Of a stretch of 64,000 bases of DNA, positions 1 through 56,254 are shown piece by piece. The position numbers were made by a program, and so were the translations under genes. Source of the stretch: Azoarcus sp. (GTDB lineage: Bacteria; Pseudomonadota; Gammaproteobacteria; Burkholderiales; Rhodocyclaceae); the NCBI GenBank assembly GCA_031265765.1, contig JAISCE010000003.1, forward strand, positions 11,738 to 75,737, read 5' to 3'. The notes beneath the pieces were generated by a model. That model saw only the letters and a program-made list of their open reading frames with translations. It was not told the origin of the DNA and ran no database searches. Each line of letters begins with the position of its first letter. Positions within the stretch are counted from its first letter, which is position 1.

Positions 1-3000
1 TGACTGATCCAAGACTTTATGAGTGGAAGTACACCCGCGTGTATTTAGAAAAAGTCGATGATCCCAATCGTGGTAAAAGCAATAACTTTTGCACGGATTC
101 GACCGATATTACTAATATAAAAGCTAATGGATCGGGTCTCGCAATGGCATTCTCTCTGTTCGGCGACGACGATTTTTCAAAGGCAAACCGCAAGGCGCTG
201 GAGTCGTTGCCTTCCGGCGACTACAAGCTTTCGATCCAGGCTTTCAATACAGAAGCTCTGTGCACAGGAAACAAGACCTCGATGAGCGAGCTCACCAACA
301 TCAATGGCTCCCTGAGGCTGAAAGCCGTTCAGGAAATCGTCTCCGCCACGGTCAATGGCGCTGCTTCGTCCTGGCTGCAACCGGGAGAAAAGTTTGATTT
401 GGGCGTCGTCCTGAAAAACAACCGGCCGGGTACGGATAAGAGCGCGCGCCTGAATCGGGTCGAATGGTTGATCGCCACTGCGCCGCCCGCGCCCACGGCG
501 ACCAATCATGCGCCGGGCATGAATTGCGCGGAACCCGGTACGACTTCCAGCGGTTTCAGCGGAACGTTCTCCTCGAATAGCGTCGTGACTGTGCCGGCAG
601 GCACCGCTTACGGCACCTACAACCTGTATCTGCGAGGGAACGGTAATAGTTCATGCACTGCGTCGGCGAGTAATGATTATCCGATTTCGCCGCTGTTCGT
701 GTTGAAGAACGCCATCACGGTCGAGCCGGGGATACGGCATATCAAGATGACGCCCTCGCAGCCGCCGCCGCAGCCGCCGGTCACGGTGGGCAGAAACGAC
801 GTCACCGTCATATGGGAAGTGAAGTTCTTGCAGCCGGTCGCGGGCGTGAACACGAATGCTTTCCGTCTCATCTCGTCGGGCGTCGGCGCGTCCGGCGCGA
901 GCATCGTTTCCATAATGGGGGTGGGGGACACTTATTATGTGACGACGAAGGTTCCGGCGGGTAGTGTCGCGCCGGATCAACTGGCCAGCCTGCGACTGGA
1001 TTTCCATGACGACGACAGTGTCCGGACCGTGACGGGGAATCGTCCGATGGGCGGGCCGGGCCAGGGCAACGGCAATTTCACCGGAGAGACGTATGCGCTC
1101 AGGGGCACGATCTGCGGTGAATCCAATGTCATTTGGTGCGACGACTTCGAGCGTTCGGTGCAGGGCGCAGCGAGATCGAATCTGGTCGGCAATGGTTGGG
1201 TGGCGGCGTCGCCCCATAGCGATTGCGAATCTCATGCGCCGGCCAGCAACGCCCAACCCGACGCGGGCGGCTGCGCGGGGATCGACAGCGACATCAAGCC
1301 CTATCACCTCTATGCCAACCTGCGCGCCAACAGTAGCCGGAGCATGTTCAACCGCTGGCGGGAGCATACGGTGACGAGCGAGGTTATCGACCTTTCCGGC
1401 CTGTCCGCCGATACGGTGGTGGAACTCAGTTACTGGCTCCGGCGCGGCGACGACGATTTCGCCGAAAAACCGGATCTGTCGACGGACAATTTCATTACCA
1501 AATACCTGGACAGGAACAACCAGTGGCAAATACTGGCCCGTTATCGCAGTACGAATGGGAAGGGCGTGGCGGGCGAGGTGCTGCGGCCGGTGTTCCAGTT
1601 GCCGGCGGAGGCGCTCTGGAGCGGCTTTCGCCTGCGCTTCGAGCAGGCGCACGGTTCCGGCTCCACCAGCCATTCCAATGCCGGCAAGGTCAATGGATAC
1701 GATTACTGGTTCATCGACGATGTGGTGCTGCGCCGGGTCGACATGCCGCGCTATGTAGGCGGTTTTTGCGACAATTTCGAGGCGCCGGCGGCCAGCCTGA
1801 AGCAATGGACGTTCAACCAGGAGGACATCTCGACCGGCGCGGGATCGGGTCTGCGGATCGGCGATGCGGGCGTGACCGGAGATGTCTACCCCGCCAGCGG
1901 GTCGCCGAATCATTCCCTTTTCCTGCGCTGGAGCTACATCGTGGCGTCCACCCTGCGCATCGACACGCGCGGCCTTGGCGGGAACATACGCTACGTGGCG
2001 CAGCGCGGCATGAAGGATCCGCCCGATACGATCAACGGCGCGGACGTGAATAAAACATGCATCTATACGACCGCGGACAAGGAGGACTCATTCGTTTCCG
2101 AATATTTCGGAGCCGACGGGAAATGGCATACGCTGGACAGCATTGCCGGCAAGGACTCGGACACTCGCTGCGGCGAGGATATAAGCTATACCTCGGCGCC
2201 GCTCTCCGGCCTGCCCCAGGCGCAGCACGAGAATTTCCGCCTGCGTTTCCGGCAGCTTTCCTATTCTTCCGGCCAAAATGGCAATGACCACAAGGATTAT
2301 TGGCTGGTCGACGATGTGTGCATCGGCAGGACGGACGGGGCCTTTCCCCGCGCCGATCTGGAACTGACGAAAACCAGGGAAAACTCGCTCTATCCGGGAG
2401 GTATCGGTATCTATGTGCTGAGTGTGAAAAACAATGGTCCCGACCGGATGCGAGGTACTTTGGAGGTCGTGGACACGCTGCCCACGGAAATGCGTTTTCA
2501 CGATTTCCAGGGAACGGGCTGGTTCTGCGAGGCCGCCGGGCAAACGGTGACATGCAGTTGGAACGGCGATCTGGAAAAAGGGCAGCGCGCGCCGGATCTG
2601 CGTATCTACGCCCTGGTGTCGGAGAGCGCCTCCGGCACGCTGAAGAACAAAGGGACGCTGTCGAGCGGCGCGGTCGACGATCCGGCGCCCGGCAACAATA
2701 CCGACGATGACGAAGGCGTAATAGAGGCGATATATTTCGCCTTCACCAAGGGGCAATGCAAAGACGGCCAGGCAATCGAGGACATGACATCAGAGGCCGC
2801 TTGCAGCCGCTACAGGTTCGCCGGGCTGGCGGGCGAGGCTCGGAGCGGCATCTATATCACCCATGTCAATGCGTCGGGAACCGCCGCCGCGCGTCTTTCT
2901 TCCAGCGCGAGCACAGCCATGAGGCTCGAATTCGCGCTGCGCTGCGTCGATCCATCCCGACCGCCGCCGCAAGGGGCGGTCAATGCCACGTTTGGCGCGG

Positions 3001-10003: not shown

Positions 10004-11323
<1,320 letters not shown>

Positions 11324-11390
11324 CACCGGGGCGGCGCTGGCGGGGTTTGTCCGCCGGCGCCGTCTTTCTCGATAGCATGAACGGTTTCAT

Positions 11391-11735
11391 ATGCGCTGGC
11401 CCATTGCGATCCTTGTCGGACTTGTCGTCGTATTGCAGTACCCCTTGTGGCTGGGCCGTGGCGGGTGGTTGCGCGCATGGGAAATCGAAAAGGATTTGCA
11501 GGCGCAGCGCGAGCGCAACCGGAGCCTGGAAAACCGCAACGCCAGCCTCGACGCCGAAGTGGACGATCTCAAGACCGGGGCCGATGCCATCGAGGAGCGG
11601 GCGCGTTACGACCTGGGGCTGGTGCGTCCGGGAGAAATTTTCGTACAAGTGCCGCGCACGTCAGCGGCGCCCAGGATACTGCTACCCGATTCCGCCGGGC
11701 CTGCGCCGGTACCGGATGAATCCGGCCGGCGATGA
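11391..11735 (+). CDS. ftsB: Cell division protein FtsB
   Basis: 114 aa, N-terminal TM helix followed by a coiled coil. Conserved position after eno. Confidence 0.8.
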   Translation: MRWPIAILVGLVVVLQYPLWLGRGGWLRAWEIEKDLQAQRERNRSLENRNASLDAEVDDLKTGADAIEERARYDLGLVRPGEIFVQVPRTSAAPRILLPDSAGPAPVPDESGRR

Positions 11736-11851
11736 CCGGGCCGAAACGCCCATGAACGGATCGCCTCCGCTCGCCGCCTTCGTTTCGCGCTTTTCTCCGC
11801 CTGCCTTTCCGGCTAAAGTTCCGCGTCTCGCCAACCTGCCTTTTTATTGCC

Positions 11852-13381
11852 GTGCATCCTATTCGCCTTGCCAGGATCGTTTCCGTCAGCCTGCGATTCG
11901 GCCTTGACCGTGTAGTGCTCGATGCCGATTCGAGCGGTCGCCTCGTGCGCTGGTGGAGCAGGGTATTTTTCTGGCGGCGGTTCAGCGAATCGCGCGGGGT
12001 GCGCCTGCGCCGGGCGCTGGAGTCTCTCGGCCCTATTTTCATCAAGTTCGGGCAGGTGTTGTCGACGCGGCGCGATTTGCTGCCGCCCGATCTGGCGGAC
12101 GAACTCGCCTTGTTGCAGGATCGCGTGCCGCCTTTCCCGTCCGAGCAGGCCGTCGGTTTGCTGGAGGCGTTTTACGGCCGCCCGGTCGATGAGGTCTTCC
12201 GCCATTTCGAGCGCACGCCGATGGCTTCAGCCTCGGTGGCGCAAGTACATTTCGCCACGCTGCCCAATGGCGCGGATGTCGCCGTCAAGGTGCTGCGTCC
12301 CGGTGTCGGCAAGGTCATTTCCCATGATCTCGACTTGCTCGAAATTGGCGCGGCCCTGCTGGAAAAAGCCTGGCCCGAAAGCAGGCGGCTGAAGCCGCGC
12401 GAAGTGGTGGCCGAATTCGGCAAATCGCTGCGCGATGAACTCGACCTCATGCGCGAGGCGGCCAATTGTGCGCAACTGCGGCGCAATTTCAAGGATTCGT
12501 CGCTGCTCGTGGTGCCCGAGGTGTATTGGGACTGGTGCGGCCCTGGGGTCATGGTGATGGAGCGCATGCACGGCACGCCCATTTCACATATTCCCGTCCT
12601 GCTCGAACAGGGGATAGACCTCAAGGCGTTGTCGCGGGCCGGCGTCGAGATTTTCTTTACCCAGGTGTTCCGCGACGGGTTTTTCCACGCCGACATGCAT
12701 CCCGGCAATATCTTCGTGCACCGCGACGGTCGCTATGTCGCCCTCGATTTCGGCATCATGGGCACGCTCAGCGATGTCGACAAGGATTACCTTGCGCGCA
12801 ATTTTCTCTTTTTCTTCAAGCGCGATTACCGCGAGGTGGCGATAGCGCACATCGAAGCGGGCTGGGTGCCCGCGCATACCCGCGTCGATGAACTCGAAGC
12901 GGCCATCCGCACGGTGTGCGAGCCGATTTTCGACCGTCCGCTCAAGGACATCTCTTTCGGCAAGACCTTGCTGCGGCTGTTCCAGACCGCGCGGCGCTTT
13001 GAAATGGAAGTGCAGCCCCAACTCGTGCTGTTGCAGAAAACGCTGCTCAACATAGAAGGGCTTGGCCGCCAGCTCGATCCCGAACTCGATTTGTGGAAAA
13101 CCGCCAAGCCCTTCCTCGAACGCTGGATGCATGAACAGGTCGGCTGGCGCGCACTATTGCGCGAGGTGAAAAACGAAGCGCCGAACTGGGCCTCCATCCT
13201 GCCTCGCCTGCCCCGGCTCGTGCACCAGTCGTTGAGCGGCGAACGCCAGCAGTACATCGCATTCCAGCATCGACTCGACGAAATCGCCCGCCGCCAGCGG
13301 CGCGGCGCAGGCTTCGTCGCCGTTCTCGGCATGCTGATCGCCGCGCTCGCGGCATTCGAGATTTGGCGTTTCTTCGGATGA
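11852..13381 (+). CDS. ubiB: Ubiquinone biosynthesis protein kinase UbiB (ABC1 family), GTG start
   Basis: [37 protein letters not shown] motif typical of UbiB/ABC1. Confidence 0.85.
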
Positions 13382-13547
13382 GCCTTGCGACCGGCTCCGA
13401 TTTTGCGCACTCCCAGCCCGCCTTTCCCGCGGGTGAAAACGCCCCAGCGGCAAGGGGGCCAGCCTTGGCGATATTTTTGCGGTCCATCGGGGCATTCGGC
13501 GCTAAACTGCCGCCGCTTCCGGTCGATGCCTTACCGAAATAACCGTC

Positions 13548-15029
13548 ATGTTGCTCAAACTTGTCGTCGCCTATCTGGTCGTGTCCATCGGTATCGGTCT
13601 TTTTGCCGCGGCGCGGGTGCACAACGCCCGCGATTACATTACCGCCGGACGCCATTTGCCGATGTCGGTGGTACTGGCGATGGTATTCGCCACTTGGTTC
13701 GGCGCCGAAACCGTGCTTGGGAATTCAGGCACCTTTCTCAAGGATGGCGCGAGCGGTCTGATTTCCGATCCGCTCGGCGCGGGCATGTGCCTGATGCTGT
13801 TCGGCCTCGTCTTCGCCCGGCCCCTCTACCGCATGAATCTCCTGACCCTGGGCGATTTTTTCCGCCGCCGCTACAACCGCGGCATCGAACTGGCGTTGTC
13901 GACCTGTATCGTCCTTTCCTACCTCGGCTGGGTGGGGGCGCAGATCGCCGCACTGGGCCTGGTGTTCGATCTGCTCTCGGGCAGCGTGGTCGATCAGCGG
14001 ACAGGAATGGTGATCGGCGCGGCGGTGGTAGTGCTCTACACACTGTTGGGCGGAATGTGGTCGGTAGCGGTCACGACCTTTGTGCAGATGATCGTGATTG
14101 TCCTGGGGCTGCTCTACGTCACCTGGATCGCCAGCGACATGGCGGGCGGCGTCGCCGCGGTCGTGGAGCACGCCACGGCGGCGGGCAAGTTCGATTTGCT
14201 TCGCGGCACGTCGGCGCGCGATATTTTTACCTGGGCGGCGGCTTTCCTCACCATGGCGCTCGGTTCCGTTCCGCAGCAGGATGTTTTCCAGCGAGTCAAT
14301 TCCTCGGGCGACGAGCGGACGGCGGTCTGGGGGACGACGCTGGGCGGTTTTTCCTACATTATCTTTGCCATGGTGCCGATCTACCTTGCCTATACGGCGC
14401 AGATCCTCGACCCGGAGATGGTCGCGCGCGTCTCGACGGACGATACCCAGAGGATCATGCCGGTATTGGTCATGAACCACATGTCTACCGCGACCCAGGT
14501 CATTTTTTTCGGCGCGTTGCTTTCGGTCATCATGAGCACCGCTTCGGGAACGCTGCTCGCCCCGTCGGTGACGTTTTCCGAAAACGTCCTGCGCGGCTTC
14601 TTTCCGCGCATGACCGACTACCAATTCCTGTGGGCCTCGCGCGTTACCGTGATCGGATTTTCCCTGCTCGTCACCTGGTACGCGCTGAACACCGCTGCCA
14701 GCATCCACGAAATGGTCGAACGCGCTTACCGCATCACCCTGGCGGGCGCTTTCGTGCCGCTCGTCGCGGGAATATTCTGGAAGCGCGCCAACAACCTGGG
14801 CGGCGCGCTCGCCGTCGGCCTGGGGCTGGCGACCTGGCTCGCGGGCGAATACCTGATTCACATCGGCATGCTCTCCGATATCCTCCAGCCGCAGGTGTAC
14901 GGCCTCGCGGCGAGCGCGGCGGGCATGATCGTCGGCGTTATCTTCGGCGCGCGCCCGGCGGACGCGCCGCCCTCCGAAGATCCCGGCCGGAGCGCCGTCG
15001 CCGCGAGTCCATGCGGGAGCGAATCATGA
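13548..15029 (+). CDS. Sodium:solute symporter family transporter
   Basis: 493 aa, multi-TM, SSF-like N-terminal region. Its TGA overlaps the ubiU ATG (ATGA). Confidence 0.65.
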   Translation: MLLKLVVAYLVVSIGIGLFAAARVHNARDYITAGRHLPMSVVLAMVFATWFGAETVLGNSGTFLKDGASGLISDPLGAGMCLMLFGLVFARPLYRMNLLTLGDFFRRRYNRGIELALSTCIVLSYLGWVGAQIAALGLVFDLLSGSVVDQRTGMVIGAAVVVLYTLLGGMWSVAVTTFVQMIVIVLGLLYVTWIASDMAGGVAAVVEHATAAGKFDLLRGTSARDIFTWAAAFLTMALGSVPQQDVFQRVNSSGDERTAVWGTTLGGFSYIIFAMVPIYLAYTAQILDPEMVARVSTDDTQRIMPVLVMNHMSTATQVIFFGALLSVIMSTASGTLLAPSVTFSENVLRGFFPRMTDYQFLWASRVTVIGFSLLVTWYALNTAASIHEMVERAYRITLAGAFVPLVAGIFWKRANNLGGALAVGLGLATWLAGEYLIHIGMLSDILQPQVYGLAASAAGMIVGVIFGARPADAPPSEDPGRSAVAASPCGSES

Positions 15030-16039
15030 CCGGCGCGCGCGGACTCGAACTCGTCTGCCCCGCGGGCGGCCTGCCGGCGCTCAAGGCGGCGGTCGACAAC
15101 GGCGCGGACTGCGTCTACTTCGGCTTCAAGGATGCGACCAACGCCCGCAACTTTACCGGACTCAACTTCGATCTTCCCCAAATCCGCGAAGGCATCGCCT
15201 ATGCCCATCGCCATGGCCGCAAGGTGCTGCTCGCGCTCAACACCTATCCGCTCGCCTGCAACCAGGCGGACTGGAACGCCGCCGTGGATCGCGCCGCCGA
15301 TCTGGGCGTCGATGCCGTCATCATGGCCGATCCCGGCTTGATGGCCTACGCCGTCCGCGTTCACCCCGAACTGCGGCTGCACCTGTCGGTACAAGGTTCG
15401 GCGACCAGCCACGAAGCAATCAACTTCTACCGCGAACGCTTCGGCATCCGGCGCGTGGTGTTGCCGCGCGTACTGTCGCTGGCGCAGGTCACGCAACTTG
15501 CGGCCAATACTCCCGTGGAAATCGAGGTATTCGGCTTCGGCGGCCTGTGCGTGATGGTCGAAGGGCGGTGCGCGCTCTCGGCCTACGCCACCGGTAAATC
15601 GCCGAACTGCAACGGCGCTTGTTCGCCGGATGCCTTCGTGCGTTGGGAGCGGACGCCGCAAGGCATGGAAACTCGCCTGAACGGCATCCTCATCGACCGC
15701 TACGCCGACGGCGAGCGCGCGGGCTACCCGACCTTGTGCAAAGGCCGGTTCACGGTCAACGACGAGACTTACTACGCCATCGAAGAACCCGCCAGCCTCA
15801 ACACCCTGGAACTGCTCCCCGATCTCGCCCGCGCGGGGGTGACGGCCATCAAGATCGAAGGACGGCAACGCAACCCGGCCTATGTCGCCCAGGTCGCCAG
15901 GGTGTGGCGCGCCGCTTTGGACGCCTTCGCGCGCGACGGCGAACGCTTCGCCGTGCAGCAAGCATGGATGGCCGAACTCAACAAGATATCCGAAGGCCAG
16001 AGCCACACCCTGGGCGCATACTACCGTCCGTGGAAATGA
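15026..16039 (+). CDS. ubiU: U32-family protein UbiU (O2-independent ubiquinone hydroxylation)
   Basis: Peptidase-U32 fold with an Fe-S Cys cluster (LCVMVEGRC...NCNGAC). About 337 aa, the size of E. coli YhbU. It is the in-frame C-terminal part of a longer spurious ORF. Confidence 0.75.
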
Positions 16040-16128
16040 ATCAGATCCGCGCCGGCGTCCTCGGAAAAGGGGCGTCCCCCTCCCGGAGCGTCGCCGAAAT
16101 CCCTCGGCAAACCGGAGCCGGTTTGACG

Positions 16129-17595
16129 ATGAAACTCTCCCTCGGCCCGCTGCTTTACTACTGGCCGCGCCAGCGTGTGTTCGATTTCTACGGCGAAGCC
16201 GCTGCCTGCGAAGCCGTCGATATCATCTATCTCGGCGAAACCGTCTGTTCGCGCCGTCACGAATTGCGGCTCGACGACTGGCTCGCGCTTGCCGCCGAAT
16301 TGTGCGGAGCGGGCAAGGAAGTCGTGCTGTCCACCCAGGCATTGATCGAATCGGAATCCGATCTCAAGACCTTGCGCCGCGTCATCGACGAAAAGAATTT
16401 CCGTATCGAGGCCAACGACATGGGCGCGGTTCGGCTGCTGGCCGAAGCCGGCCGCCGAAACTGGATCGCCGGGCCGACGCTCAACATCTTCAACCCCGTC
16501 ACGCTTGCCCTCCTCGTCGATGAAGGCGCCAGCCGTTGGGTCGTTCCGCCCGAGATGGCCGGAGAGAACGTCGCCGGTCTGCGCGCCGGGATGCCCGCTC
16601 CCATCGAAACCGAAATCTTCGCCCATGGCCGCCTGCCGCTGGCCTACTCCGCGCGCTGCTTTACCGCCCGGCACTACAACCTGCAAAAAGACGCCTGCGA
16701 ATTCCGTTGTCTGCGCGACGGCGACGGCATCCTGCTGCGCACGCGCGAAGGCGAACCCTTCCTGACGCTCAACGGCATCCAGATCCAATCGGCGAGGGTC
16801 TACAACCTGCTCGCCGACCTGCCGGAAATCGCCGGTCACGCCGAAATCCTGCGCATCAGCCCGCAAAGCGGGCACACCCTGGAAATCGCGGCGCTTTTTC
16901 GCGCCGCGCTCGACGCGCGCCTCAGTCCGGCAGCCGCCTTTGCCGCTTGCCGGGCGCTGATGCCGGAAGCGCCCTGCAACGGCTTCTGGCATGGCCGGGC
17001 GGGACTCGAATATCTGCCGTCCGGAACTGCCGCGCCCACCGTCTCCGCGCCTGCGCCCGCCGTTTCGCCGCCCGTTTTGCCCGCCGCGCCCATGCCCGCG
17101 ATCCCGTCCCTGATCCGCTTGCTGCCTGCCGGGGTGCGCGACCGCATCGCGCAAAAGTTGCGGCGCGCGCGCCTTCCCGCGTTCACCGTGCCCGCGCCGC
17201 TTGCCCGGCTCAACGCGAGGCTGCCTCAACTTCCGGCCACGCTGGCGCTGACCACGGCGCTCAACCTTGCGCCGGAAGCCCTGTTGCCGCGCGCCGCGCT
17301 CTTGTCCCTCACTGGCCGCCGCCTGCGCGTATGCGTGCTCGATGCCGGGTTCAGCCTCGACTTCACCCTTGGCGCAAATGGGCGTTTCCGCCCCTGCCGC
17401 GCCGCGGCTGCTGCCGACCTGACGATTTCCGCCGCGCTGCGCGATTTTCTCGCGCTCGCCCTGCGTGAAGAAGACGCCGATACCCTTTTCTTTGGCCGCC
17501 GTCTGCATATGGAAGGCGATACCGGACTCGGCGTGCTGGTCAAGAACACACTCAACGCCGTCGACTGGAACAGCATTTTCGCCGCCCAGGCTTGA
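16129..17595 (+). CDS. ubiV: U32-family protein UbiV with a C-terminal Ala/Pro linker and an SCP2-like (UbiT-like) domain
   Basis: YhbV-like N-terminal ~290 aa, then linker [20 protein letters not shown], then a ~160-aa domain ending [26 protein letters not shown] (SCP2 signature). RBS GGAG 11 nt upstream. Confidence 0.6.
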
Positions 17596-17649
17596 GTTCT
17601 CCATAAATATCCGGCGGCGGCCAGCGGGTGGAAAAGCGCCAAGCGCGCT

Positions 17650-17886
17650 ACTGAACCCTATTGCCATGCGCACGCCATCAAATGACATGATGAAATCGCC
17701 AAGCGATAAAACCATAGCCATGTACGCTTCACCGGATTTACCCATGAGTTTGAGAAAAACCTGCTGCTTTTGCAGGTTTTTGTCGCTTCTGGCGAATGCA
17801 TCGGCCATCTTGAGCATGATTTGCTCAGTATCCATTTTTTTCAGATCGGCAACGGACAGACCGATGCCCTTGAATGCCTTAGTCAT
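17650..17886 (-). pseudogene. Phage tail tape-measure protein N-terminal fragment
   Basis: MTKAFKGIGLSVADLKKMDTEQ...QVFLKLMGKSGEAYMAMV resembles the conserved TMP N-terminus (..AMELFGKSG..). The frame then runs into GC-rich antisense of ubiV and is not a genuine continuation. Confidence 0.3.
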
Positions 17887-17999
17887 TTATTTGTTGCCGC
17901 TGATTGCGCCGCTTTGTGCGCGCTTCAGCTTGGAGATACCAGAAGCGTGCCGAGAAATGGATACACTAGTCTTACTATGTCACAAAAGTAGTATTTTGT

Positions 18000-18299
18000 T
18001 TATTCGTCCGCAGCAGGGACACAGCGGGATGCGAAGGAGTAGTACCACTCATTGGATTTGTCATCGATGTCACGCCCGCTTTCCGTCCGTAACTGCTCAT
18101 AGCGCCGGATCATCATCCCTACCGTGACACCGCCAGGATCGTACCCCTGTGCCCCGTCCGCAATGGCCGCCTCCGTTCGCTGTGCCCATGCAACCGCCGC
18201 CGCTTTCGTCGGGAACGTTTTGCAGATAGACTTCGTCCCGCGCCGCCGTACTTGGACACGCCACTTGTCGCCGATTTTGAGTATTGATGCTATGAACAT
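18000..18299 (-). pseudogene. Tyrosine integrase N-terminal (arm/AP2-like DNA-binding) fragment; catalytic domain absent
   Basis: KIGDKWRVQVRRRG...KTFPTKAAAVAWAQRTEAAI motif. The ORF stops after ~100 aa. Confidence 0.4.
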
Positions 18300-18447
18300 T
18301 TTCGCTGTAGCAAGAATGGTAGCAACGAAATGTGAGACAGCGTGCGGCAGAATGATGGAACGTGAAGCGAGCAATGTCGAAAACCCGCGTCAATCCAGGG
18401 AATCAGGCGGTTTCCTTACCTATTGCCAAGCACTATAAACCCCCTAT

Positions 18448-18522
18448 CTCCCCGTAGTTCAATGGATAGAACGAGCGCCTCCTAAGCGCTAGATACAGGT
18501 TCGATTCCTGTCGGGGGGACCA
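18448..18522 (+). tRNA. tRNA-Arg (anticodon CCT), unusual C1-G72 / U2-G71 acceptor
   Basis: Hand-folded: acceptor CTCCCCG/CGGGGGG, D-arm GTTC-AATGGATA-GAAC, anticodon stem-loop AGCGC-CTCCTAA-GCGCT, T-arm ACAGG-TTCGATT-CCTGT, discriminator A, CCA. Confidence 0.75.
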
Positions 18523-18634
18523 GCGCACTGTTCGATACCGTCCGATCAAGGCCGAAACATCCAAGGAAATCAAGGATTCCCGCCCGCAATTCGTCGAGCG
18601 ATCTACACGACCGATGCCATTGATGAGAGACGAC

Positions 18635-20035
18635 ATGACCTCGACTGTCCGCACCCGCTTCGCTCCGAGTCCGACCGGCTATCTGCACATCGGCGGCGCG
18701 CGTACCGCGCTGTTTTCATGGGCCTATGCCCGCCATTGCGGCGGCAAGTTCATCTTGCGCATCGAAGATACCGATCTCGCCCGCTCCACGCCGGAAGCGG
18801 TGCAGGCCATCCTCGACGGCATGGCCTGGCTCGGACTCGACCACGATGAAGGGCCGTTCTACCAGACGCGGCGCATGGATCGCTATAAAGAAGTCATCCA
18901 GCAAATGCTCGCCGACGGCACGGCCTACCGCTGCTACACCTCGAAGGAAGAACTTGATGCCCTGCGCGCGGCGCAGGAAGCGAGAAAGGAAAAGCCGCGC
19001 TATGATGGGCGCTGGCGGCCCGAACCCGATAAGACGCTGCTGCCCGCGCCCGCGGGGATCGCGCCGGTCTTGCGGTTCAAGAACCCGAAGGATGGCGCGG
19101 TTGCCTGGGACGACATCGTAAAAGGGCGCATCGAGATTGCCAACGCCGAACTCGACGACTTCATCATCGCCCGCGCCGACGGCACGCCGACCTACAATTT
19201 CTGCGTCGTTGTCGACGACTGGGACATGGGCATTACACATGTCATCCGCGGCGACGATCACGTTAACAACACTCCGCGCCAGATCAACGTTCTTGCGGCG
19301 CTGGGCGCGGCCATTCCGCGGTACGCCCATCTTTCGATGATCCTCGGCGACGATGGCGCGAAGCTCTCCAAGCGCCATGGCGCGGTGAGCGTCATGCAAT
19401 ACCGGGACGCGGGCTATCTGCCGGGAGCGGTCATCAATTATCTTGCCCGGCTCGGCTGGAGCCACGGCGATGACGAACTATTCAGCCGTGAGCGTTTCGT
19501 CGAATGGTTCGACCTCGACCGCATCACCTCCTCGGCGGCGCAATTCAACACCGGCAAACTGGACTGGCTCAACGCCCAATACATCAAGGCCGCCGGCGAC
19601 GGCGTCCTCGCGCGGGAGGCGGGCGAACGCCTTGGCGTACTGGGCATCGATACTGCGGGCGGCCCCGGACTCGACGCGGTTGCGGCGCTCTACAAAGAAC
19701 GCGTGAACAACCTCAACCAACTGGCCGAAGCCCTCGCGCCGTTTTATCGGGCGCCCGCCATTCCCCCGGCGCTCGCCGAAAAACATCTCGACGCTCCGGC
19801 ACGCGCGATGCTGGCCTCGCTCGGCGACCGGTTGGAGAAACTCCCGGACTGGGAAAAAGACGCCATCAGCCAAGCGATCAAGGAAACCCTCAAAGAACAT
19901 GACCTGAAAATGCCGCGTTTGGCGATCCCGCTACGGGTCGTCCTGTTCGGTGTGGAGCACACCCCCTCCATCGACGCCGTCCTGGCCGTGCTCGGGCGCG
20001 GCCAGACCTTGCAAAGATTGGCGGGGCTGCGCTGA
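18635..20035 (+). CDS. gltX: Glutamate--tRNA ligase
   Basis: [19 protein letters not shown] (HIGH) and KLSKRHG (KMSKS) motifs. Confidence 0.9.
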
Positions 20036-21400
20036 AGCGTCAGCTTCGTTTGTTGCTGTCTTCTGGGCAATGTTGCGCTGCCATGCAGGATCGTAAAGCA
20101 CGCTGCAATTGCGGCCCGCCGCCTTGGCCGCATAGAGTGCCTCGTCCGCGCGGCGCAGCGGCTCCTCGGCGCCCACATCTGTCGAGAGCAACTCGGTAAT
20201 TCCGATACTGACCGTGACGCGCATCAGCGTATTGCCGATCCTGGTCGGACTCGTCTCGAAAGTCCGCCGCAGCCGTTCCGCGACTTCACGCGCCCCATAG
20301 ATACCGTCGCCGGGTAAGAGAATGGCGAACTCCTCCCCGCCTATGCGGCCGATGACATCGCTTCGGCGCATGGTCTGCTGGGCGGTGTGCACAAAATGAT
20401 TGAGTACCGCGTCTCCCGCCGCGTGCCCGTGGTCATCATTGACGCACTTGAAAAAATCGAGATCCGTCATCAATAGCGAAACAAAACCGCCATGGCGGCG
20501 CTGCCGCGCCAGTTCCGTTTCCAACTGATCGAAAAAATGCCTGCGATTGCTGGCGCCGGTCAGAGAATCCGTCGTTGCCAGCCGCAATAACGCTTCTTGC
20601 CGATTGCGCTGTTCGGTCGTATCGCAAAATATCACTATCGCGCCCGTCTTTTGCCCCCGTTCGTAAATCGGCGTGACCCTCATTCGCGCCGGGAAAAAAC
20701 TGCCGTTTCGCCGAAACAGCCACACTTCACTCTGGTGTACCTCGCCATCGTCCAGCGTTTGCGTGAGCGGGCAATTCGCAGCTGGATGTACACGGCCATC
20801 CGGATAATGATGATGAAAAAGATCGTGCAGGTTTTTGCCCATCGCTTCTTCGAGTGCGCAGCCGTGCATGGTGAGTGCGGCGCGATTCATTGAAGTAATG
20901 TTTCCGTTGTTATCGACGCTGCAAATGCCATCGGTCGTCGTATTCAGGAGCAGGGTGTTATGCTGCAAAACCTTTCCGGCCTCGGCGACGCTCAATGCCA
21001 GACGGCGCTTCCACTGGCGGCGCGACAGGCGCAGTAAAAACAAAATACACAACAACGCCACGAAATAACTGGCCGTAAAAGCGTAGACGGTCGTTGCAAG
21101 AACAGCTTTGCGGTTTTCGTTGAGCATGTGCTGCATTTCGGTATTGATATAGATATTGTGCTGTAATACCCGTTCATGCCGCTCGGGCACCGCATTCCTG
21201 GCGATGCGGGCATCGTGAAGCAGGCTGGCGTTGGCGAGCGCAGTATCGAAATGCCAGTCGATCTGCCGGGATAAGCAATACCCCGTAACTGAGAAAATCA
21301 CGGCGAGCGCGATACCGGTTAGCAAGACCATAAGCCTGTTGGGCATTGTGTTATTCGTCTCCGTTATGGGGGAGGTACCCGTATTGTATGAAAAACACAT
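19931..21400 (-). CDS. Membrane-anchored PAS-GGDEF diguanylate cyclase
   Basis: N-terminal TM segments, a PAS-like region, and a GGEEF active site ([11 protein letters not shown]). Alternative start at 21346. The 3' end overlaps gltX by ~105 nt on the opposite strand. Confidence 0.75.
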
Positions 21401-21426
21401 GTTGCCCGATGTTGGCTTTCTCGGCG

Positions 21427-22923
21427 TTAATCATCTCCCTTCCCGGCATCCATTGTGATTCCTTCCCTTTTGCCGCGCGGCAAAAACGTCTGGTGTGTCA
21501 GACTTGTATCGAAGGGCAGGGCCGTGGCCTCCTCGTCGCATTCAACCCGATGCAAGCTTTGCGCCAGCGCCGGATAGACGGTTTGCAAATCCGGTTGCAG
21601 CTCGATGGCTTCTTTCAGGTAGACGGTGGCGATCTCGGGGTGTCCGGTTTTTAGCATTTCTTCTCCAAATGCGGCCTTGATGTCGGCGCGTCCAGGTGCG
21701 ACACGATCCGCCTGCGCGATGAAATCGGCTGCTTCCTGCAACAAACCCTGATGGGCGGCGATGAAGCCGAGGTAGGCAAATGGGAGCGGGTTGTTCGGTT
21801 CCCGCGTCATGGCAGCGGAAAGAAATTCGATGGCGGCGGCGTAATCGCCGGCGTTGAATGCCCTGATGCCGTCTTCGATTTCATTGCCGCTTCGGTAGGA
21901 AACGGTATTTCCCGGTCTTGGCGCGAGAAAGACGATTTCATCGGCTTGCGGGCAGGGCGGATAATCGCAGTTTGCCGCCAGCTTTTCTTCGGCTTCGTGC
22001 AAAATCAAATCCAGTACGGCTTGCGCATCGAAGGGATCGATACAGGGATGCAGCACCGATGGAAGAGATGCCCGGCTGCGCAAAAAATCTTCAGGGCGGC
22101 TTAAAACGACGCCGGGAAAAGCCGAAAAGAACTCGCATTGTATCCTTTGCTCTACGGCATTTTCCGAGGGCAAGGCGACGACAGGCGTTCCCATCGCGCT
22201 GGCCTCGATGATGATTCCGGAAAGCCCATTGGCTACAGCGACGCGGGTATCCTGTATGGTATCCCCTGTATGTTGCTGCGCGGGAATGACGTGGACGCCC
22301 CTTGCCCGGAACGCTTCTTCAAATTCCAGATAACCCGGCCAACAGGGAAACTTTATGGCAACGCCTTCATTCAGGATCGGGGAAATTTTTTCGTATGTCC
22401 GATCGATTCCATAACGTCTCACATGGCTCGTGAGATCCGAGAAGAACCAGACACAGTCATGGGATCGTTCGGCAGGCGGCTTCCATGCGTTACGATATGA
22501 AATCCATCCCGCATTGTGGAATTTTGCGGGCTTGGGCTGGTAGCCGAAAAATGGCGTTGGCCACAGCACGAGATCGAATGCCGACAACAATGCGGGTTCA
22601 TTCAAAACCAGAGGCGTGGTTAGGTCATGGGGATAAAAAACAGATAAAACCGGTTTGGCATGGAACAGGATTTCGAGAAAATCGGCCCCGATCTTGATGT
22701 CCGGATAGGCAGATGCCAAATTCTGTGCGTCGCGTGTAAAATGCGCTGAAGTCAGCAGGATGAATGGCGTCGAAAGAAGGCGGGTGAGTTCCTCCTGTCT
22801 GCTCATACCTTCATCCGGCAAGACCAGTACCTCGTGGCCCCGATTGTGCACGGCGTCGGCAAAGTCTGAAAGCAGTATGTTTTCAGAACCATAGCCCCAG
22901 ATGACGAAAATGGGGGATATCAT
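21427..22923 (-). CDS. GT-B fold glycosyltransferase (GT1/MurG-like) with a C-terminal TPR domain
   Basis: C-terminal GT-B motif RVAVANGLSGIIIEASAMGTPVVALP, TPR-like tail. ATGA overlap with the upstream gene. Confidence 0.5.
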   Translation of the reverse strand: MISPIFVIWGYGSENILLSDFADAVHNRGHEVLVLPDEGMSRQEELTRLLSTPFILLTSAHFTRDAQNLASAYPDIKIGADFLEILFHAKPVLSVFYPHDLTTPLVLNEPALLSAFDLVLWPTPFFGYQPKPAKFHNAGWISYRNAWKPPAERSHDCVWFFSDLTSHVRRYGIDRTYEKISPILNEGVAIKFPCWPGYLEFEEAFRARGVHVIPAQQHTGDTIQDTRVAVANGLSGIIIEASAMGTPVVALPSENAVEQRIQCEFFSAFPGVVLSRPEDFLRSRASLPSVLHPCIDPFDAQAVLDLILHEAEEKLAANCDYPPCPQADEIVFLAPRPGNTVSYRSGNEIEDGIRAFNAGDYAAAIEFLSAAMTREPNNPLPFAYLGFIAAHQGLLQEAADFIAQADRVAPGRADIKAAFGEEMLKTGHPEIATVYLKEAIELQPDLQTVYPALAQSLHRVECDEEATALPFDTSLTHQTFLPRGKREGITMDAGKGDD

Positions 22924-23759
22924 GGCGTGCGCTCCGTCGAATTGACGCAATGGAATGAAGCGGAGGGGATTTTCTGGGAAAACAACATCAGGATTGGCGG
23001 CAACGTCGAGACAGTGGCAGGCGATGCATAGACGTAGAAACCCAGGTTCTCATCCCGGCGTGTCACATAGTTTTCTTCCTCCGATTCGGCCAGCCTGGAT
23101 ATTTCGGTAAAACCAGCGTTATGAATCAACAGGCGGACGGTATTCTCACTCCAGTCTTCTGTCCTGATTGAGAGCAGAAGGCTCTTCGCTCGTTCGCAAA
23201 CTTGCTGTATCTGGCTACGACAACGGAGGACAAGGCTGGAAAGCCACGGATCGGGAATCCAGACTATGTCGCATTCGTTGATTACCGTGAAGACGGATTC
23301 CAGATCGCCGGGATGGAGGCTCTCTGCGTAATTCCCGGATTTGTCCCGCGTGATGACCGTAAATGGCCCATTGATGGCGTGCAAGCGTATTTCCAGACTT
23401 TCCTCGAGATCAGTGGCTTCGAGCAGATCCGTATATTCCACACGGTTTGTCGTAAGTACGCACAGATGCTTGTCTGTCAGGTCAAGACTGCGCAATTGCC
23501 AATAGTGTATATAGGCTGATTGATGCATCAGATAAGATGGCGATAAGTAGAAAGCGTTCTGGATATCACAATGTACCGAAAACAAATGTCCATGTATATC
23601 CTTCGTTTGTTGAGAGATTTGCAATCCGTAAGGAAGCGGCAAGCTTCTGAGTGTCAAGTGTTCGAGTTTTTGCGCAAGTTCGGAATTTTCATGACTCAAT
23701 TCCTGTAAACGCTTCTCCTGCGTCAGCAGCAAGTCGAGAATTTTTTGCAAGATTTCCAT
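22920..23759 (-). CDS. Hypothetical protein (N-terminal coiled coil), low GC
   Basis: 279-aa ORF in an AT-richer islet, no recognisable domain. Translationally coupled to the downstream GT gene. Confidence 0.4.
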   Translation of the reverse strand: MEILQKILDLLLTQEKRLQELSHENSELAQKLEHLTLRSLPLPYGLQISQQTKDIHGHLFSVHCDIQNAFYLSPSYLMHQSAYIHYWQLRSLDLTDKHLCVLTTNRVEYTDLLEATDLEESLEIRLHAINGPFTVITRDKSGNYAESLHPGDLESVFTVINECDIVWIPDPWLSSLVLRCRSQIQQVCERAKSLLLSIRTEDWSENTVRLLIHNAGFTEISRLAESEEENYVTRRDENLGFYVYASPATVSTLPPILMLFSQKIPSASFHCVNSTERTP

Positions 23760-23774
23760 CTGTCCGCACTCTCC

Positions 23775-24848
23775 TCACATCTGGTTTCTTCGTTCAAATT
23801 CAAACCACCACACTGCCGAGTCTGCCCTATGCTGGTAAAGTGGAAAGGCGTCGTGCAACGACCATCCCTTTGATTGAATGGCATTTATTATTTCCTCTTT
23901 TGTTCGATAATATGCGGTGTAAAGTGAATCCAGTTCCGGCGAGAAGAAATTGACCAGATCGAATCTTTTTTCCATGGCAATACTTGTTCTTAGCAATAAT
24001 TGCGATGATTGATGCGCGAATTCTCCGACATGCGCCAACAATCGCTCAAATTGCTCATCATCCAGGGATGGTGTAATTCCGGACAATAAAATCAGGTCAA
24101 AATATTTCTCTGTCTGAAATTCTGCAACATCCGCGACGTGCAGGTGGATATGCGGGAGATTCGTCTTTTTTTGACTGGCGATTGCAATGAGTTCATTTGA
24201 AAAATCAACCCCGGTCACATCGTCGAATTTCCGGGCAATCGTGGCCAGGTGGCGACCATCTCCGCATCCCAGATCAATCAGGCTTCTAGCTTTGCTCCGC
24301 TCGGCGCATTTTTCAATGAGATCGCACTCGTGCGCCGTTTCGTGGAACATTTTTCCCTGGTCTCCTCCAAAACTGCCCAAAGTGGTCACGCCAGCCGGCA
24401 AATCGGCTTGTTTTGCCGCCCGCGACGCCCAGAAAGACTGTAATTTTGCGCGTATCGACGTTGAAGAAACCTTCGATGTTCGTGGGATGTGCACTACATG
24501 CACACCATGTATGGCGCAGTATTCCAGCGTTTGCAATTGATCTGGATACTCCCGATTCTGACCGTATTCGTCTCCGCAAACAAAAACATCTATCTTCAAC
24601 GCAGCCAGCAAGGCTCCTTGAAACACACTCGAATAGCTTACGACCGCGGAAACAAAACGAAGTTGCTCGATCAGGGCAATACGCTCCGCCAACGACGTAA
24701 CGGGGCTGACGCCTTTCTGACATTTGACGGCTCTATCTTCCTGCACCGCGACAATCAGTTCGTCGCCCTCTCGACTAGCCGCCAGCAGATAATTCAAATG
24801 CCCAATGTGGAAAACATCGAATACGCCGGGTACAAGCACTTTGCTCAA
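23775..24848 (-). CDS. Bifunctional TagD-like cytidylyltransferase (HxGH) / class I SAM-dependent methyltransferase
   Basis: GVFDVFHIGHLNYL...DVFVCGDEYG matches glycerol-3-phosphate cytidylyltransferase. MTase motif I LIDLGCGDGRH. Start called at the TTG at 24848 with an AGGAGA RBS; the ORF track extends to 25049 through an Arg-rich, non-protein-like tail. Confidence 0.55.
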   Translation of the reverse strand: MSKVLVPGVFDVFHIGHLNYLLAASREGDELIVAVQEDRAVKCQKGVSPVTSLAERIALIEQLRFVSAVVSYSSVFQGALLAALKIDVFVCGDEYGQNREYPDQLQTLEYCAIHGVHVVHIPRTSKVSSTSIRAKLQSFWASRAAKQADLPAGVTTLGSFGGDQGKMFHETAHECDLIEKCAERSKARSLIDLGCGDGRHLATIARKFDDVTGVDFSNELIAIASQKKTNLPHIHLHVADVAEFQTEKYFDLILLSGITPSLDDEQFERLLAHVGEFAHQSSQLLLRTSIAMEKRFDLVNFFSPELDSLYTAYYRTKEEIINAIQSKGWSLHDAFPLYQHRADSAVWWFEFERRNQM

Positions 24849-38685: not shown

Positions 38686-38854
38686 CGGGGATACCCTGAA
38701 AAGGTTCACGGAAAACGGATAATTATATGAAGCTCGTTCGATACTGGCAAGAAGTCTGCCCGGGATGGCGACAAATAACCGGATTCCCCCGGACGATGGT
38801 CAACGGGCAGCCATCGTCCGGATGGGCCGCCCGTTTCGTCGCGGTTCGTGGTTT

Positions 38855-39547
38855 TCAGAGCATCGCCGCGATGTCGTCCGGCGACCATACCGTGCCGTCG
38901 TCGAAGTGAACTTCTTCAATGGCATCGGTATTGAAGGTGATTCTGCCTTTGCCCGAGTCGTAGTTCAGGACGGTGATGCCGAAGAACTGCTCGACCTCTA
39001 TGTCTTCGGGCGCGATTCCCTCGTCGAACTGGATGATGTCGAGATCGCCGCCGGTGTCGATGATCTGATCCCGACCGCTGCCGAGGTCGAAGAAATAGGT
39101 ATCGCTGCCCGTACCGCCATACAGGAAATCGCTTCCCGTACCGCCATACAGGGTGTCGTTGCCCGCGCCGCCATCCAGGATGTCGCTGCCCGCGCCGCCA
39201 ACCAGGGTGTCATTGCCTGTACCGCCATACAGGTCGTCGTTGCCCGCGTCGCCGTTCAATGTATCGTTGCCTGCGTCGCCGTATAGAACGTCGCTCCCCC
39301 CGTTGCCGTTCAGGGTATCGTCGCCGCCCTTGCCGTGTATGATATCGGGCTTGTCGCTGCCGTCCAGGGCATCCGTGTCATTGGTGCCGGTAGTCACAAC
39401 CAGTTTATATGGCTTGACGACGACGGGGCCGTATGAGAACCCCCAGGCTCCGTAAATGGGAGCATAGATTGCGGGAGCATAAACTGGCGCTAGGTATGGC
39501 AGCGGCCCGACAAAGGGACCGACAGGCAGTAAGTACGATAATGCCAT
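38855..39547 (-). CDS. Hemolysin-type calcium-binding (RTX GGxGxDxL) repeat protein
   Basis: Tandem nonapeptide repeats ([36 protein letters not shown]...). No N-terminal signal peptide. Confidence 0.65.
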
Positions 39548-39734
39548 GGTGATCTCCAATCAGTTGTTCTGAAAGCGGAACACGCATTGTATATGCAAAC
39601 GCGACGAGTCGGGTAATTTTTTTGAGTTGTATCGGATAATGGACAAGCGTCGGCTTGTGCCGCTTCGGCATCACCGGCCCAAGTCGATTCTTCGGGCGCG
39701 GAATCCCAGGGCCGGGCGGGCGAAGGATGTTATT

Positions 39735-50114: not shown

Positions 50115-50777
50115 CTAATATGCATCGGGTGAAACTTTTTCGGCTGGCTTGCCGTCGAGCGCCACGCGGCCCATGTCCATTTCGATGACGCGACCGACCA
50201 GTGCGGAGACTTCGGCGAGGCGGTGGCAGGAAATGAGCATAGTGGTTTCGTTCGATCGTTGTGCGAGCAGGTCGAAAAAGATCTTGCGCGCCTCGGGGTC
50301 GAGGTTGGCAGCCGGTTCGTCCATTATCAGGACGCGGGTATCGCGTCCGAGCGCGATGGCGATGAGGAGTTTTTGTTTCATGCCGCCGGACAGGCGCATG
50401 AACTGGCGTTCGCGCACCGCTTCCATGTCCAGGCCGAGCCGGTTGGCGACGGAAGCGATGCGTTGCGGGGCGGTACCGCACAATGCCGCCGAAAAAGCGA
50501 CGAGTTGCCCCACCGGCATTTTGAGCGGCGGCGGCAACTGCGGCACGAAGCCGATTTTGCCAAGCGCCGCGGCGCGCTGCCGGCGCGGGTCGAAACCATC
50601 GATGCGTACTACTCCGTCATAAGCGTATTCGCCGAGCAGGCAGCGGATCAGCGTGGTCTTGCCTGCGCCGTTGGAACCGATCAGGGCGACGCGCTCGCCC
50701 GGTTCGATGGAAAGCGCGATTCCGTCCAGCGCCCGGACGCGGCGGAAGGTCTTGACCAGGTTTTCGAGCAGAATCAT
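50115..50777 (-). CDS. nosF: ABC ATPase NosF
   Basis: Walker [10 protein letters not shown], signature LSGGMKQK, Walker B LIMDEP. Confidence 0.85.
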
Positions 50778-50832
50778 GGCGATTGCCGGCAATAGGGTTC
50801 GGATTCATGGGCGGCGCGGCGCTCGATCGGCG

Positions 50833-51795
50833 TCACGATATTCCCTTGATTTCGTAGCGCAGCGCGCCGTTTTTGCAAACATCCACGCACAGGCCGCAGC
50901 GTGTACAGTCCGGGCCGAGCGCCGTATTCGCCTCGGCGGCGCGTCCCTTGATCGTCACATCGAGCACGTGCGGCACCAGGCATACCTTGCGGCAGTCGCC
51001 TTCGTGCAGGCACGGTTCGAGACGGAAGCTCACCCGCAGCGGCGAGACCGATCCCACTACGCCGTAGGTAAGGCCGATCGGGCAGATGTAGCGGCACCAG
51101 GCGCGGCGCGACCAGAACACCTCGAAAACCAGAAGCAGGAACACCCAGCCCAGGGCCAGTCCCGGCCCGTAGATCAGGGCGCGCGACAGGATGCCGGTGG
51201 GCGAAAGCGTCTCGAATACGGTGTAGCCGGTGGCGAGGGCCAACAGCGCGAAAAGCGCCCAGAACACCGTGCGTGCGCCGCGGTGGAATGCGTGATCGGT
51301 CACGAGTCCACGGCGCGCGAGCGCGAGATGGGCTTTTTCAGCCAGTTCGGAGAACAGATGATAGGGACACACCCAAGAACAGAAGGTGCGCCCGCCGAGC
51401 ATGACCCACAGCAGGAAGACGGTGAGCGTGCCGATGAGGAGGTTGATGACGATGTGCTTGTGGGCGAGCATCACCTGTAGCGCGGCGTTGAGGTCGATGA
51501 GATGGAATCCCGCGAAGCGCGATGCGGTGAGCGCGCCTTCGAGAAGTTGGATGTCGAGCCGGTAGGAGAGTACGAAGAACAGGTTTACCGCCACGAGCGT
51601 CGCCCAGCGCCAGTTGCGCCATTTGTGGCTGGGCGCAGACGCCGCCTCTGCCTGCGCCTGCAACTGTTCCTGGATGAAGCGCGCATTGTCATGGTATTTG
51701 AAAGCCGTGATTTGCCGCGCTTCGTCGGAAATCTCCATCGGTTTCTTCGGGGCGGCGCCGAGCATCTCCAGGAATTGATCGGTGTGGCGGCTCAT
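50833..51795 (-). CDS. nosH: NapH-like membrane-bound iron-sulfur protein NosH
   Basis: TM helices plus CxxCxxC ferredoxin motifs (CSWVCPY, CRYICPIG, CTRCGLCVDVC). Confidence 0.75.
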   Translation of the reverse strand: MSRHTDQFLEMLGAAPKKPMEISDEARQITAFKYHDNARFIQEQLQAQAEAASAPSHKWRNWRWATLVAVNLFFVLSYRLDIQLLEGALTASRFAGFHLIDLNAALQVMLAHKHIVINLLIGTLTVFLLWVMLGGRTFCSWVCPYHLFSELAEKAHLALARRGLVTDHAFHRGARTVFWALFALLALATGYTVFETLSPTGILSRALIYGPGLALGWVFLLLVFEVFWSRRAWCRYICPIGLTYGVVGSVSPLRVSFRLEPCLHEGDCRKVCLVPHVLDVTIKGRAAEANTALGPDCTRCGLCVDVCKNGALRYEIKGIS

Positions 51796-53998: not shown

Positions 53999-54001
53999 CG
54001 A

Positions 54002-54979: not shown

Positions 54980-55022
54980 TTGCGGCACCTGTTTCCGGGT
55001 CGAAGCGACAATTGCGGCGCGG

Positions 55023-55736: not shown

Positions 55737-55780
55737 GTTGGGGTTCCTCCACGTGTTCGATACATCGAAACCGTGCCGGC

Positions 55781-56200: not shown

Positions 56201-56254
56201 GCTCCGGTGGAAACCGGCGAAGGCCATGAAACCTTCGCCGGTCGCCCTGGCTGT

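Follow-up and report, generated by a model that had tools for sequence, protein, structure and literature searches.

A ubiV::ubiT gene fusion in an Azoarcus-like clade of Rhodocyclales very probably encodes UbiV and UbiT as one polypeptide

In the 64,000-nt stretch of an Azoarcus sp. contig analysed here (JAISCE010000003.1, positions 11,738 to 75,737; the whole stretch is referred to below as the window), the genes ubiV and ubiT are joined in a single open reading frame (ORF). UbiU and UbiV form a heterodimer in which each protein carries a [4Fe-4S] cluster, and which performs O2-independent hydroxylations of ubiquinone synthesis (PMC6747719). The function of UbiUV strictly requires the SCP2 protein UbiT, for which UbiJ is no substitute (PMC10470549). 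In Escherichia coli and Pseudomonas aeruginosa, UbiV and UbiT are two proteins, whereas the gene in the window very probably encodes one polypeptide that consists of a complete UbiV, a short Ala/Pro-rich linker that is predicted to be disordered and a complete UbiT. Taken as a whole, we consider this the best explanation of the observations described below.

The fused ORF starts with the ATG at position 16129, ends with the stop codon at 17593–17595 on the forward strand and encodes a product of 488 aa with no internal stop (Table 1). This product passed the NCBIfam equivalog model of UbiV (NF047965) with 374.6 bits at a cut-off of 275, residues 2–294 matching profile positions 1–292 of 292. 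It also passed the equivalog model of the UbiT SCP2 domain (NF047962) with 115.4 bits at a cut-off of 46.9, residues 363–481 matching profile positions 2–119 of 120. Pfam matches to Peptidase_U32 (46.5 bits) and SCP2 (PF02036, 46.8 bits, cut-off 21.3) were found on the same product. The UbiT-derived portion exceeds the SCP2 core, as it starts at about residue 322–323 and takes in the conserved N-terminal segment of UbiT. The true linker is therefore only ~28 aa long (residues 295–322), and Ala, Pro, Ser and Thr make up 71% of it. From the old start Met on, the UbiT part aligns with the stand-alone UbiT of two unfused relatives (L013 and L014) at 55–58% identity, and its N-terminal segment also aligns with the N-terminus of E. 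coli UbiT. In the UbiV domain, C40, C177, C190 and C194 correspond to C39, C180, C193 and C197 of E. coli UbiV, which bind the [4Fe-4S] cluster (PMC6747719). These four residues were invariant in an alignment with E. coli, unfused Thauera and three fused relatives. An initial annotation, made by a model from the DNA letters and a list of ORFs, had proposed a UbiV-like U32 domain of ~290 aa from the ATG at 16129, an Ala/Pro-rich linker and an in-frame UbiT-like SCP2 domain at the C-terminus. All three are borne out.

No second SCP2 gene was found in the 64,000-nt window. A weak match to E. coli UbiT at 38834–39133 on the forward strand (E = 5e-4) lies antisense to a gene for a small RTX-type Ca-binding protein with GGxGxD repeats (38855–39559, reverse strand), and we rejected it as spurious.

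A sequence search of the PDB with the fused protein gave no match at E ≤ 0.01, and a fold comparison was therefore needed. We modelled the full-length protein with AlphaFold2 on an alignment of 88 sequences (mean predicted local distance difference test (pLDDT) score 78.3). The N-terminal domain was modelled as a confident alpha/beta barrel, with low confidence at the Cys-rich cofactor loop (residues 169–217), and its fold match in the PDB was the U32 protein Mk0906 (5d88), found with Foldseek. Residues 303–326 had pLDDT values below 50, and the linker is therefore predicted to be disordered. Residues 330–488 formed a second confident domain, in which the UbiT N-terminal segment was predicted to be helical (pLDDT 76–89). 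This C-terminal domain matched E. coli UbiJ-SCP2 (6h6n, 6h6o and 6h6p; target template modelling (TM) score 0.65–0.72) and human SCP-2L. When residues 323–488 were modelled alone, the pLDDT was 87.4 and the predicted TM score (pTM) 0.76. The best matches of this model were 6h6p and 6h6o (target TM 0.64–0.69), and UbiJ-SCP2 and SCP-2L were retrieved with probability 1.00 and target TM 0.59–0.69. The C-terminal part is thus predicted to have the SCP2 fold that the initial annotation had expected there.

To what extent the fusion occurs in other genomes was addressed with a protein search and a genome survey. In a search of 5.8 billion proteins, 26 protein clusters of 478–511 aa with 65–100% identity and both Pfam domains were found in JGI, ENA, Logan and NCBI assemblies, and the matches ranked next were UbiV proteins of ordinary length (298 aa) from Azoarcus and Thauera. 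The genome survey, in which each GTDB species was represented by one genome, recovered 80 related loci, and each was classed by its reading frames. The C-terminal extension that the initial annotation had noted in one sequence recurred here, as ubiV and ubiT occupied one ORF in 13 of the 80 loci (L001–L012 and L030). Locus L033 is probably a fourteenth, as its contig ends without a stop beyond the normal end of UbiV. The remaining 66 loci, among them those of Thauera, Aromatoleum, Zoogloea, Denitromonas, Chromatiaceae and Thiothrix, were unfused: ubiV has a stop, and the UbiT match starts 45–585 nt further on the same strand. At least 4 of the 13 fused metagenome-assembled genomes (MAGs) are of termite-gut origin, namely those with the name codes Nt197, Th196 and Lab288, which mark MAGs from the guts of higher termites (PMC7024585).

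Next, we focused on how the fusion evolved. In a neighbour-joining tree of UbiU and UbiV, the 14 fused sequences (13 loci and the window) were monophyletic in all 100 bootstraps, and the unfused locus L013 was the sister of the fused clade, likewise with 100/100. Translation of the junction in the ubiV frame revealed that ubiV and ubiT are separated by one in-frame stop, and no more, in 15/15 unfused relatives that have both genes in the same frame. The Thauera-type ubiV frame ends with ...GVEQYVAA and the stop, after which a short spacer leads to the start of UbiT (e.g., MPALPSLP...LLPGNLRQRI). In the fused clade, this stop is missing and the former spacer is translated as a linker rich in Ala, Pro, Ser and Thr, followed by the entire UbiT. 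As all fused sequences form one clade and the inspected same-frame relatives have a single stop, these comparisons indicate that the fusion arose once, when a co-directional ubiU-ubiV-ubiT operon lost the stop codon of ubiV. They place this origin in the ancestor of an Azoarcus-like clade that includes the termite-gut MAGs. The initial annotation had taken E. coli, where ubiT is encoded separately and divergently from ubiUV, as its point of reference. This holds for E. coli; the relevant ancestral state, however, is the co-directional ubiU-ubiV-ubiT order of Rhodocyclales, from which the fusion would have needed only one stop-codon loss.

Of eight unfused relatives that were checked, five carry a GGAG Shine-Dalgarno (SD) motif 9–11 nt 5' of the ubiT ATG. 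Ten fused sequences could be anchored at this point, and none of them has an SD-like motif in the equivalent 60 nt (0/10). The relic Met at the old UbiT start is kept only in the window and in L001, and has been lost in most fused species. In the fused clade, the UbiT part is not set up as a free-standing protein of ~170 aa, as it has no stop before it, no SD and no start codon that is conserved. The alignments indicate that ubiT has lost its own ribosome-binding site in this clade. Ratios of nonsynonymous to synonymous substitution (dN/dS), computed per segment across the 14 fused genes, were 0.14–0.22 in the UbiV domain and, as low as this, 0.16–0.22 in the UbiT SCP2 domain. They were 0.40–0.43 in the UbiT N-terminal segment and 0.56–0.68 in the linker. 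Judging from these ratios, both domains are under strong purifying selection. The linker varies between 28 and 52 aa across the fused clade and has almost no sequence in common between the two subclades, but stops and frameshifts are absent from it throughout.

We weighed these observations against other explanations. A sequencing or assembly error might have deleted the ubiV stop or shifted the frame in an organism that really has two genes. The window is part of a metagenome-assembled contig. In close relatives, a single stop separates ubiV from ubiT, which is a gene of its own in the same frame, so that an error in one base could be enough to imitate a fusion. However, 13 other species-level MAGs, which stem from different assemblies, have the single ORF too, as do the 26 protein clusters, and a sequencing error is therefore excluded. 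The linker differs in length and sequence between the genomes, yet in none of them does it contain a stop or leave the frame, and the fused genomes form one clade. Moreover, the SD before ubiT is gone as well, which one base error would not delete. The artificial fusion that the initial annotation had considered is thus effectively refuted. A different explanation accepts the continuous ORF but holds that UbiT is also, or even mainly, made as a free protein, through internal initiation or proteolysis of the linker, so that the system would still function as three proteins. NCBI annotation of the same contigs does call a separate 'SCP2 sterol-binding domain-containing' protein of 141–154 aa, the ancestral ATG at the old UbiT start is retained in the window and in L001, and the linker, modelled as disordered, could be accessible to proteases. 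The NCBI proteins, which correspond to window stretch 17158–17595 and its equivalents in L002, L004, L005, L009, L010 and L011, start at internal codons of the TTG/GTG type that occupy a different position in each MAG. In the window this codon is the TTG at 17158, inside the UbiT N-terminal segment, and every one of the NCBI starts cuts into the conserved N-terminus of UbiT. We therefore read these short proteins as gene-caller artefacts on the fused ORF. Loss of the SD, in contrast to the GGAG at -9 to -11 in five unfused relatives, and loss of the relic Met in most fused species also argue against internal initiation. In addition, a fast-drifting linker that is kept strictly in frame across 14 species suggests that selection sees read-through translation. 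On balance, free UbiT is an unlikely alternative to the single polypeptide. No NCBI protein for the UbiV part of these contigs was among the matches of the protein search, and GenBank may treat this part as a pseudogene or leave it unannotated.

It is also conceivable that the C-terminal SCP2 domain is not UbiT-like in function and serves as a general lipid-binding or membrane-targeting tail that has nothing to do with ubiquinone intermediates. Many unrelated enzymes carry a fused SCP2 domain, such as the alkylsulfatases and MFE-2 among the fold matches, and P. aeruginosa UbiT binds phosphatidic acid too. However, the domain passed the UbiT-specific equivalog (115.4 versus 46.9 bits) and is 55–71% identical to the stand-alone UbiT encoded directly after ubiV in sister lineages. 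Synteny and the junction alignment identify it as a direct ortholog of that protein, which makes a generic tail very improbable. Apart from the NCBI calls, several points weigh against the single functional polypeptide that we favour. The 52-kDa product is a prediction from the DNA sequence, and it might be cleaved. The pTM of the full-length model is only 0.60, and the relative placement of the domains and docking of SCP2 on UbiV are not established by the model. The fusion could also be a neutral, tolerated stop loss between two proteins that were already cooperating. Finally, UbiT of E. coli has a further role, with the aerobic hydroxylases, when cells shift from anaerobic to aerobic conditions (PMC10470549). 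By analogy, a tethered UbiT may be less good at this role, and the fused clade may have given something up.

For a UbiV that carries UbiT on the same polypeptide, the separate proteins of E. coli and P. aeruginosa suggest how the parts would work together. The SCP2 module would hold the polyprenyl tail of the intermediates and present the ring to the UbiU-UbiV heterodimer. Binding of the polyprenyl tail of ubiquinone intermediates has been shown only for the P. aeruginosa UbiT protein, which also binds phosphatidic acid. The fusion would fix UbiT and UbiV at a ratio of 1:1 and ensure their joint synthesis and proximity. Isolated UbiT is poorly soluble and needed a TrxA tag, and the tether may keep it in solution. 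An anaerobic Ubi complex that contains UbiT has been proposed but, in the words of its authors, not yet demonstrated.

The fusion is not restricted to the Rhodocyclales. In an exhaustive HMMER scan of 1.84 billion representatives, almost all UbiV relatives were ~300 aa long, with two exceptions (P0121 and P0268). P0121 (541 aa) passed both the UbiV model (372.6 bits) and the UbiT model (126.1 bits) and has a linker of ~100 aa. Its locus, in which ubiD is followed divergently by ubiU, ubiV::ubiT and an MFS gene, is present in three separate assemblies (L082, L083 and L084, ENA metagenome contigs). The lineage comprises ~57 clusters of 500–628 aa with linkers of ~100 aa or more. Its closest unfused relatives are the UbiV proteins of Cardiobacteriaceae (77%), Neisseria and Pelistega. 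As each fused lineage is nearer to unfused relatives than to the other fused lineage, their sequences indicate that the UbiV::UbiT fusion arose independently at least twice. The other exception, P0268 (466 aa), combines a UbiV-like U32 domain with a C-terminal SCP2 domain; both NCBIfam scores are below the cut-off, and the Pfam SCP2 score is above it. Its cluster includes a Planctomycetota MAG protein. In the Planctomycetota locus L085 (proteins P0268 and P0283 (MFH1885004.1)), the U32::SCP2 gene follows a U32 gene after 5 nt and precedes a ferredoxin-like fragment. This pair lies outside the Pseudomonadota, where ubiquinone synthesis is not expected, and may hydroxylate some other prenylated lipid without O2. 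Three further candidates were rejected as fusions: P0187 (367 aa) and P0240 (341 aa) end in Arg/Ala-rich, out-of-frame junk at the C-terminus with no SCP2 match, and P0173 (379 aa) is an E. coli-like UbiV with a miscalled N-terminus. Because fusions recur in the Rhodocyclales clade, the Cardiobacteriaceae-like lineage, Zymomonas (UbiT-UbiU) and Planctomycetota (U32::SCP2), one might go further and regard UbiT as an obligate, stoichiometric third subunit of the hydroxylase. It would be docked on UbiV and feed polyprenyl-phenols into the UbiU-UbiV active site; the repeated fusions would mark lineages committed to the tether, and the Planctomycetota case would extend O2-independent lipid hydroxylation by U32 and SCP2 proteins beyond ubiquinone producers. 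We consider this idea possible but doubtful.

Compared with the UbiU-UbiV-UbiT system of E. coli and P. aeruginosa (PMC6747719; Vo et al. 2020; PMC10470549), the window encodes the same three families, all above the NCBIfam equivalog cut-offs, with the same Cys ligands in UbiU and UbiV and with ubiV after ubiU as in all known loci. The window locus lies in a genome of the denitrifier type, with a clade II nosZ. In E. coli, ubiT is divergently transcribed, whereas here it has no start signals of its own and therefore no separate regulation as in E. coli. A co-directional ubiU-ubiV-ubiT order is one standard ubiTUV architecture (PMC11707229). It is found in the operons of Thauera, Aromatoleum, Zoogloea, Denitromonas and Chromatiaceae, which have the same gene order and orientation, often the same frame, and in many cases the same ubiB/SSF neighbourhood. 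These unfused operons are 57–77% identical to the window in UbiV and 41–69% in UbiT. Unlike the fused gene, they keep the ubiV stop, a spacer (45–585 nt, measured from the stop to where the UbiT alignment begins) and, in 5/8 checked, an SD before ubiT. Among solved structures, E. coli UbiJ (6h6n, 6h6o and 6h6p) comes nearest to the C-terminal domain (target TM 0.62–0.69, root-mean-square deviation 3.3–4.1 Å), and it is likewise proposed to hold polyprenyl intermediates. However, it is only 19–24% identical, serves the O2-dependent hydroxylases of the aerobic Ubi metabolon, does not replace UbiT and is not fused to an enzyme.

A fusion of UbiT to a hydroxylase subunit is already known for UbiU. 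Zymomonas mobilis has a ubiT-ubiU fusion with a separate ubiV downstream (Pelosi et al. 2019, PMC6747719). As in the window, the SCP2 factor is fused to a U32 hydroxylase subunit, and in both cases the partner is the subunit whose gene adjoins ubiT. In Zymomonas, however, this partner is UbiU, as described in PMC6747719, whereas here it is UbiV, with SCP2 at the C-terminus and UbiU as a separate protein of 337 aa. Zymomonas also belongs to the Alphaproteobacteria and the fused clade to the Rhodocyclales. A 2024 survey of 1,566 ubiTUV loci described four gene architectures and did not mention fusions (PMC11707229). The searchable literature yielded no paper that mentions a protein of the UbiV-UbiT or U32+SCP2 type. 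To this extent, the initial annotation's remark that it had not seen the fusion described holds for UbiV-UbiT. It overlooks the Zymomonas ubiT-ubiU fusion of 2019 and the automatic JGI annotation, which names the fused protein 'collagenase-like PrtC family protease/predicted lipid carrier protein YhbT'.

The fused gene is part of a co-directional ubi block, of which ubiB is the first gene (Table 1). The TGA of the following SSF gene (sodium:solute symporter family) and the ATG of ubiU overlap as ATGA at 15026–15029, and ubiV lies directly 3' of ubiU after a gap of 89 nt. In UbiU, C175, C182, C199 and C238 correspond to C169, C176, C193 and C232 of E. coli. The initial annotation had described this arrangement correctly, including the ATGA coupling of ubiU to an SSF gene after ubiB, the Fe-S Cys motif of UbiU and the clade II nos cluster elsewhere in the window. 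Synteny of the SSF gene extends to most of the fused Rhodocyclales and to many that are unfused, but the gene is missing from the fused L030 and the unfused L013. Many unfused genomes of Thauera, Pseudothauera and Denitromonas carry an SSF homologue at the same place, flanked by ubiB and ubiU. We therefore rejected the transporter as a fusion-specific module; judging from gene order, the ubiB/SSF neighbourhood is lineage synteny and not part of the fusion. No FNR box (TTGATN4ATCAA with up to two mismatches) was found upstream of the SSF gene or ubiU. The 21 matches in the whole window are not above chance (mean 14.2), and a promoter and terminator scan of 11300–18700 also gave counts at chance level.

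Table 1. Coordinates of the fused gene, its segments and other features discussed in the text. Positions refer to the window unless another sequence is named.
Feature	Sequence	Position	Strand	Evidence or remark
ubiV::ubiT fused ORF	window	16129–17595	+	488 aa plus stop; both equivalog models above cut-off; same ORF in 13 species-level genomes
UbiV domain	window	16129–17010	+	Residues 1–294; NF047965; Fe-S ligands C40, C177, C190, C194
Linker	window	17011–17094	+	Residues 295–322; translated former ubiV stop and ubiV-ubiT spacer; ends with relic UbiT ATG 17092–17094
UbiT N-terminal helical segment	window	17095–17214	+	Residues 323–362; conserved with stand-alone UbiT
UbiT SCP2 lipid-binding domain	window	17215–17571	+	Residues 363–481; NF047962, Pfam SCP2, Foldseek
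ubiB (ABC1 atypical kinase-like ubiquinone accessory protein)	window	11852–13381	+	NF003404 804.9 bits, cut-off 667; Pfam ABC1 259 bits
SSF transporter	window	13548–15029	+	Pfam SSF 126.8 bits
ubiU (U32-family [4Fe-4S] subunit of O2-independent hydroxylase)	window	15026–16039	+	NF047963 548.6 bits, cut-off 440
ABC ATPase	window	50115–50792	-	In nos cluster
napG/napH-like ferredoxins	window	50833–52652	-	In nos cluster
nosD	window	52649–53998	-	In nos cluster
Cytochrome c	window	55023–55784	-	In nos cluster
nosZ	window	56255–58540	-	TIGR04246 927 bits; Sec-dependent clade II type
ubiV::ubiT of second lineage	L082	6001–7626
U32 gene (Planctomycetota)	L085 (JAZHBU015538060.1)	3–518
U32::SCP2 gene (Planctomycetota)	L085 (JAZHBU015538060.1)	523–1923		5 nt after the U32 gene
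Ferredoxin-like fragment (Planctomycetota)	L085 (JAZHBU015538060.1)	1948–2166

A number of other features of the window were observed. The nos cluster occupies 50115–58540 on the reverse strand and is of the Sec-dependent clade II type, which agrees with a denitrifying or N2O-respiring lifestyle. The opposite strand of the fused gene holds a 621-aa ORF (16021–17886), which we treated as a high-GC antisense artefact of ubiV::ubiT; its first ~94 codons (17605–17886), which lie outside the ubi gene, might be real. Between the fused gene and a tRNA-Arg(CCT) gene (18448–18522), the stretch 17596–18522 shows little coding signal. It contains this 94-codon fragment (reverse strand), which has a sub-threshold match to a phage minor-tail protein, and a 124-aa ORF (18000–18374, reverse strand), and may be the remnant of a tRNA-integrated element. 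Further downstream, after gltX, the GC content of 20001–24000 is low (0.50–0.57 compared with 0.62 in the whole window). This stretch starts with a PAS-GGDEF diguanylate cyclase (19931–21400, reverse strand) and may have been horizontally acquired.

The UbiUVT pathway provides proteobacteria with ubiquinone in the absence of oxygen and is needed for denitrification in P. aeruginosa. Public MAG records of the fused clade are likely mis-annotated, as they appear to list a truncated SCP2 protein only, with UbiV missing. A survey that relies on NCBI proteins may consequently score these MAGs as lacking UbiV, and hence as lacking the O2-independent pathway. The fusion is maintained by selection and recurrent, and it leaves the understanding of the pathway unchanged. 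As isolated UbiT is poorly soluble, a tethered construct may help biochemistry, and UbiV::UbiT co-expressed with UbiU could ease reconstitution and structure determination. A natural fusion of UbiV and UbiT is 'Rosetta-stone' evidence that UbiT is in direct contact with the hydroxylase at a ratio of 1:1.

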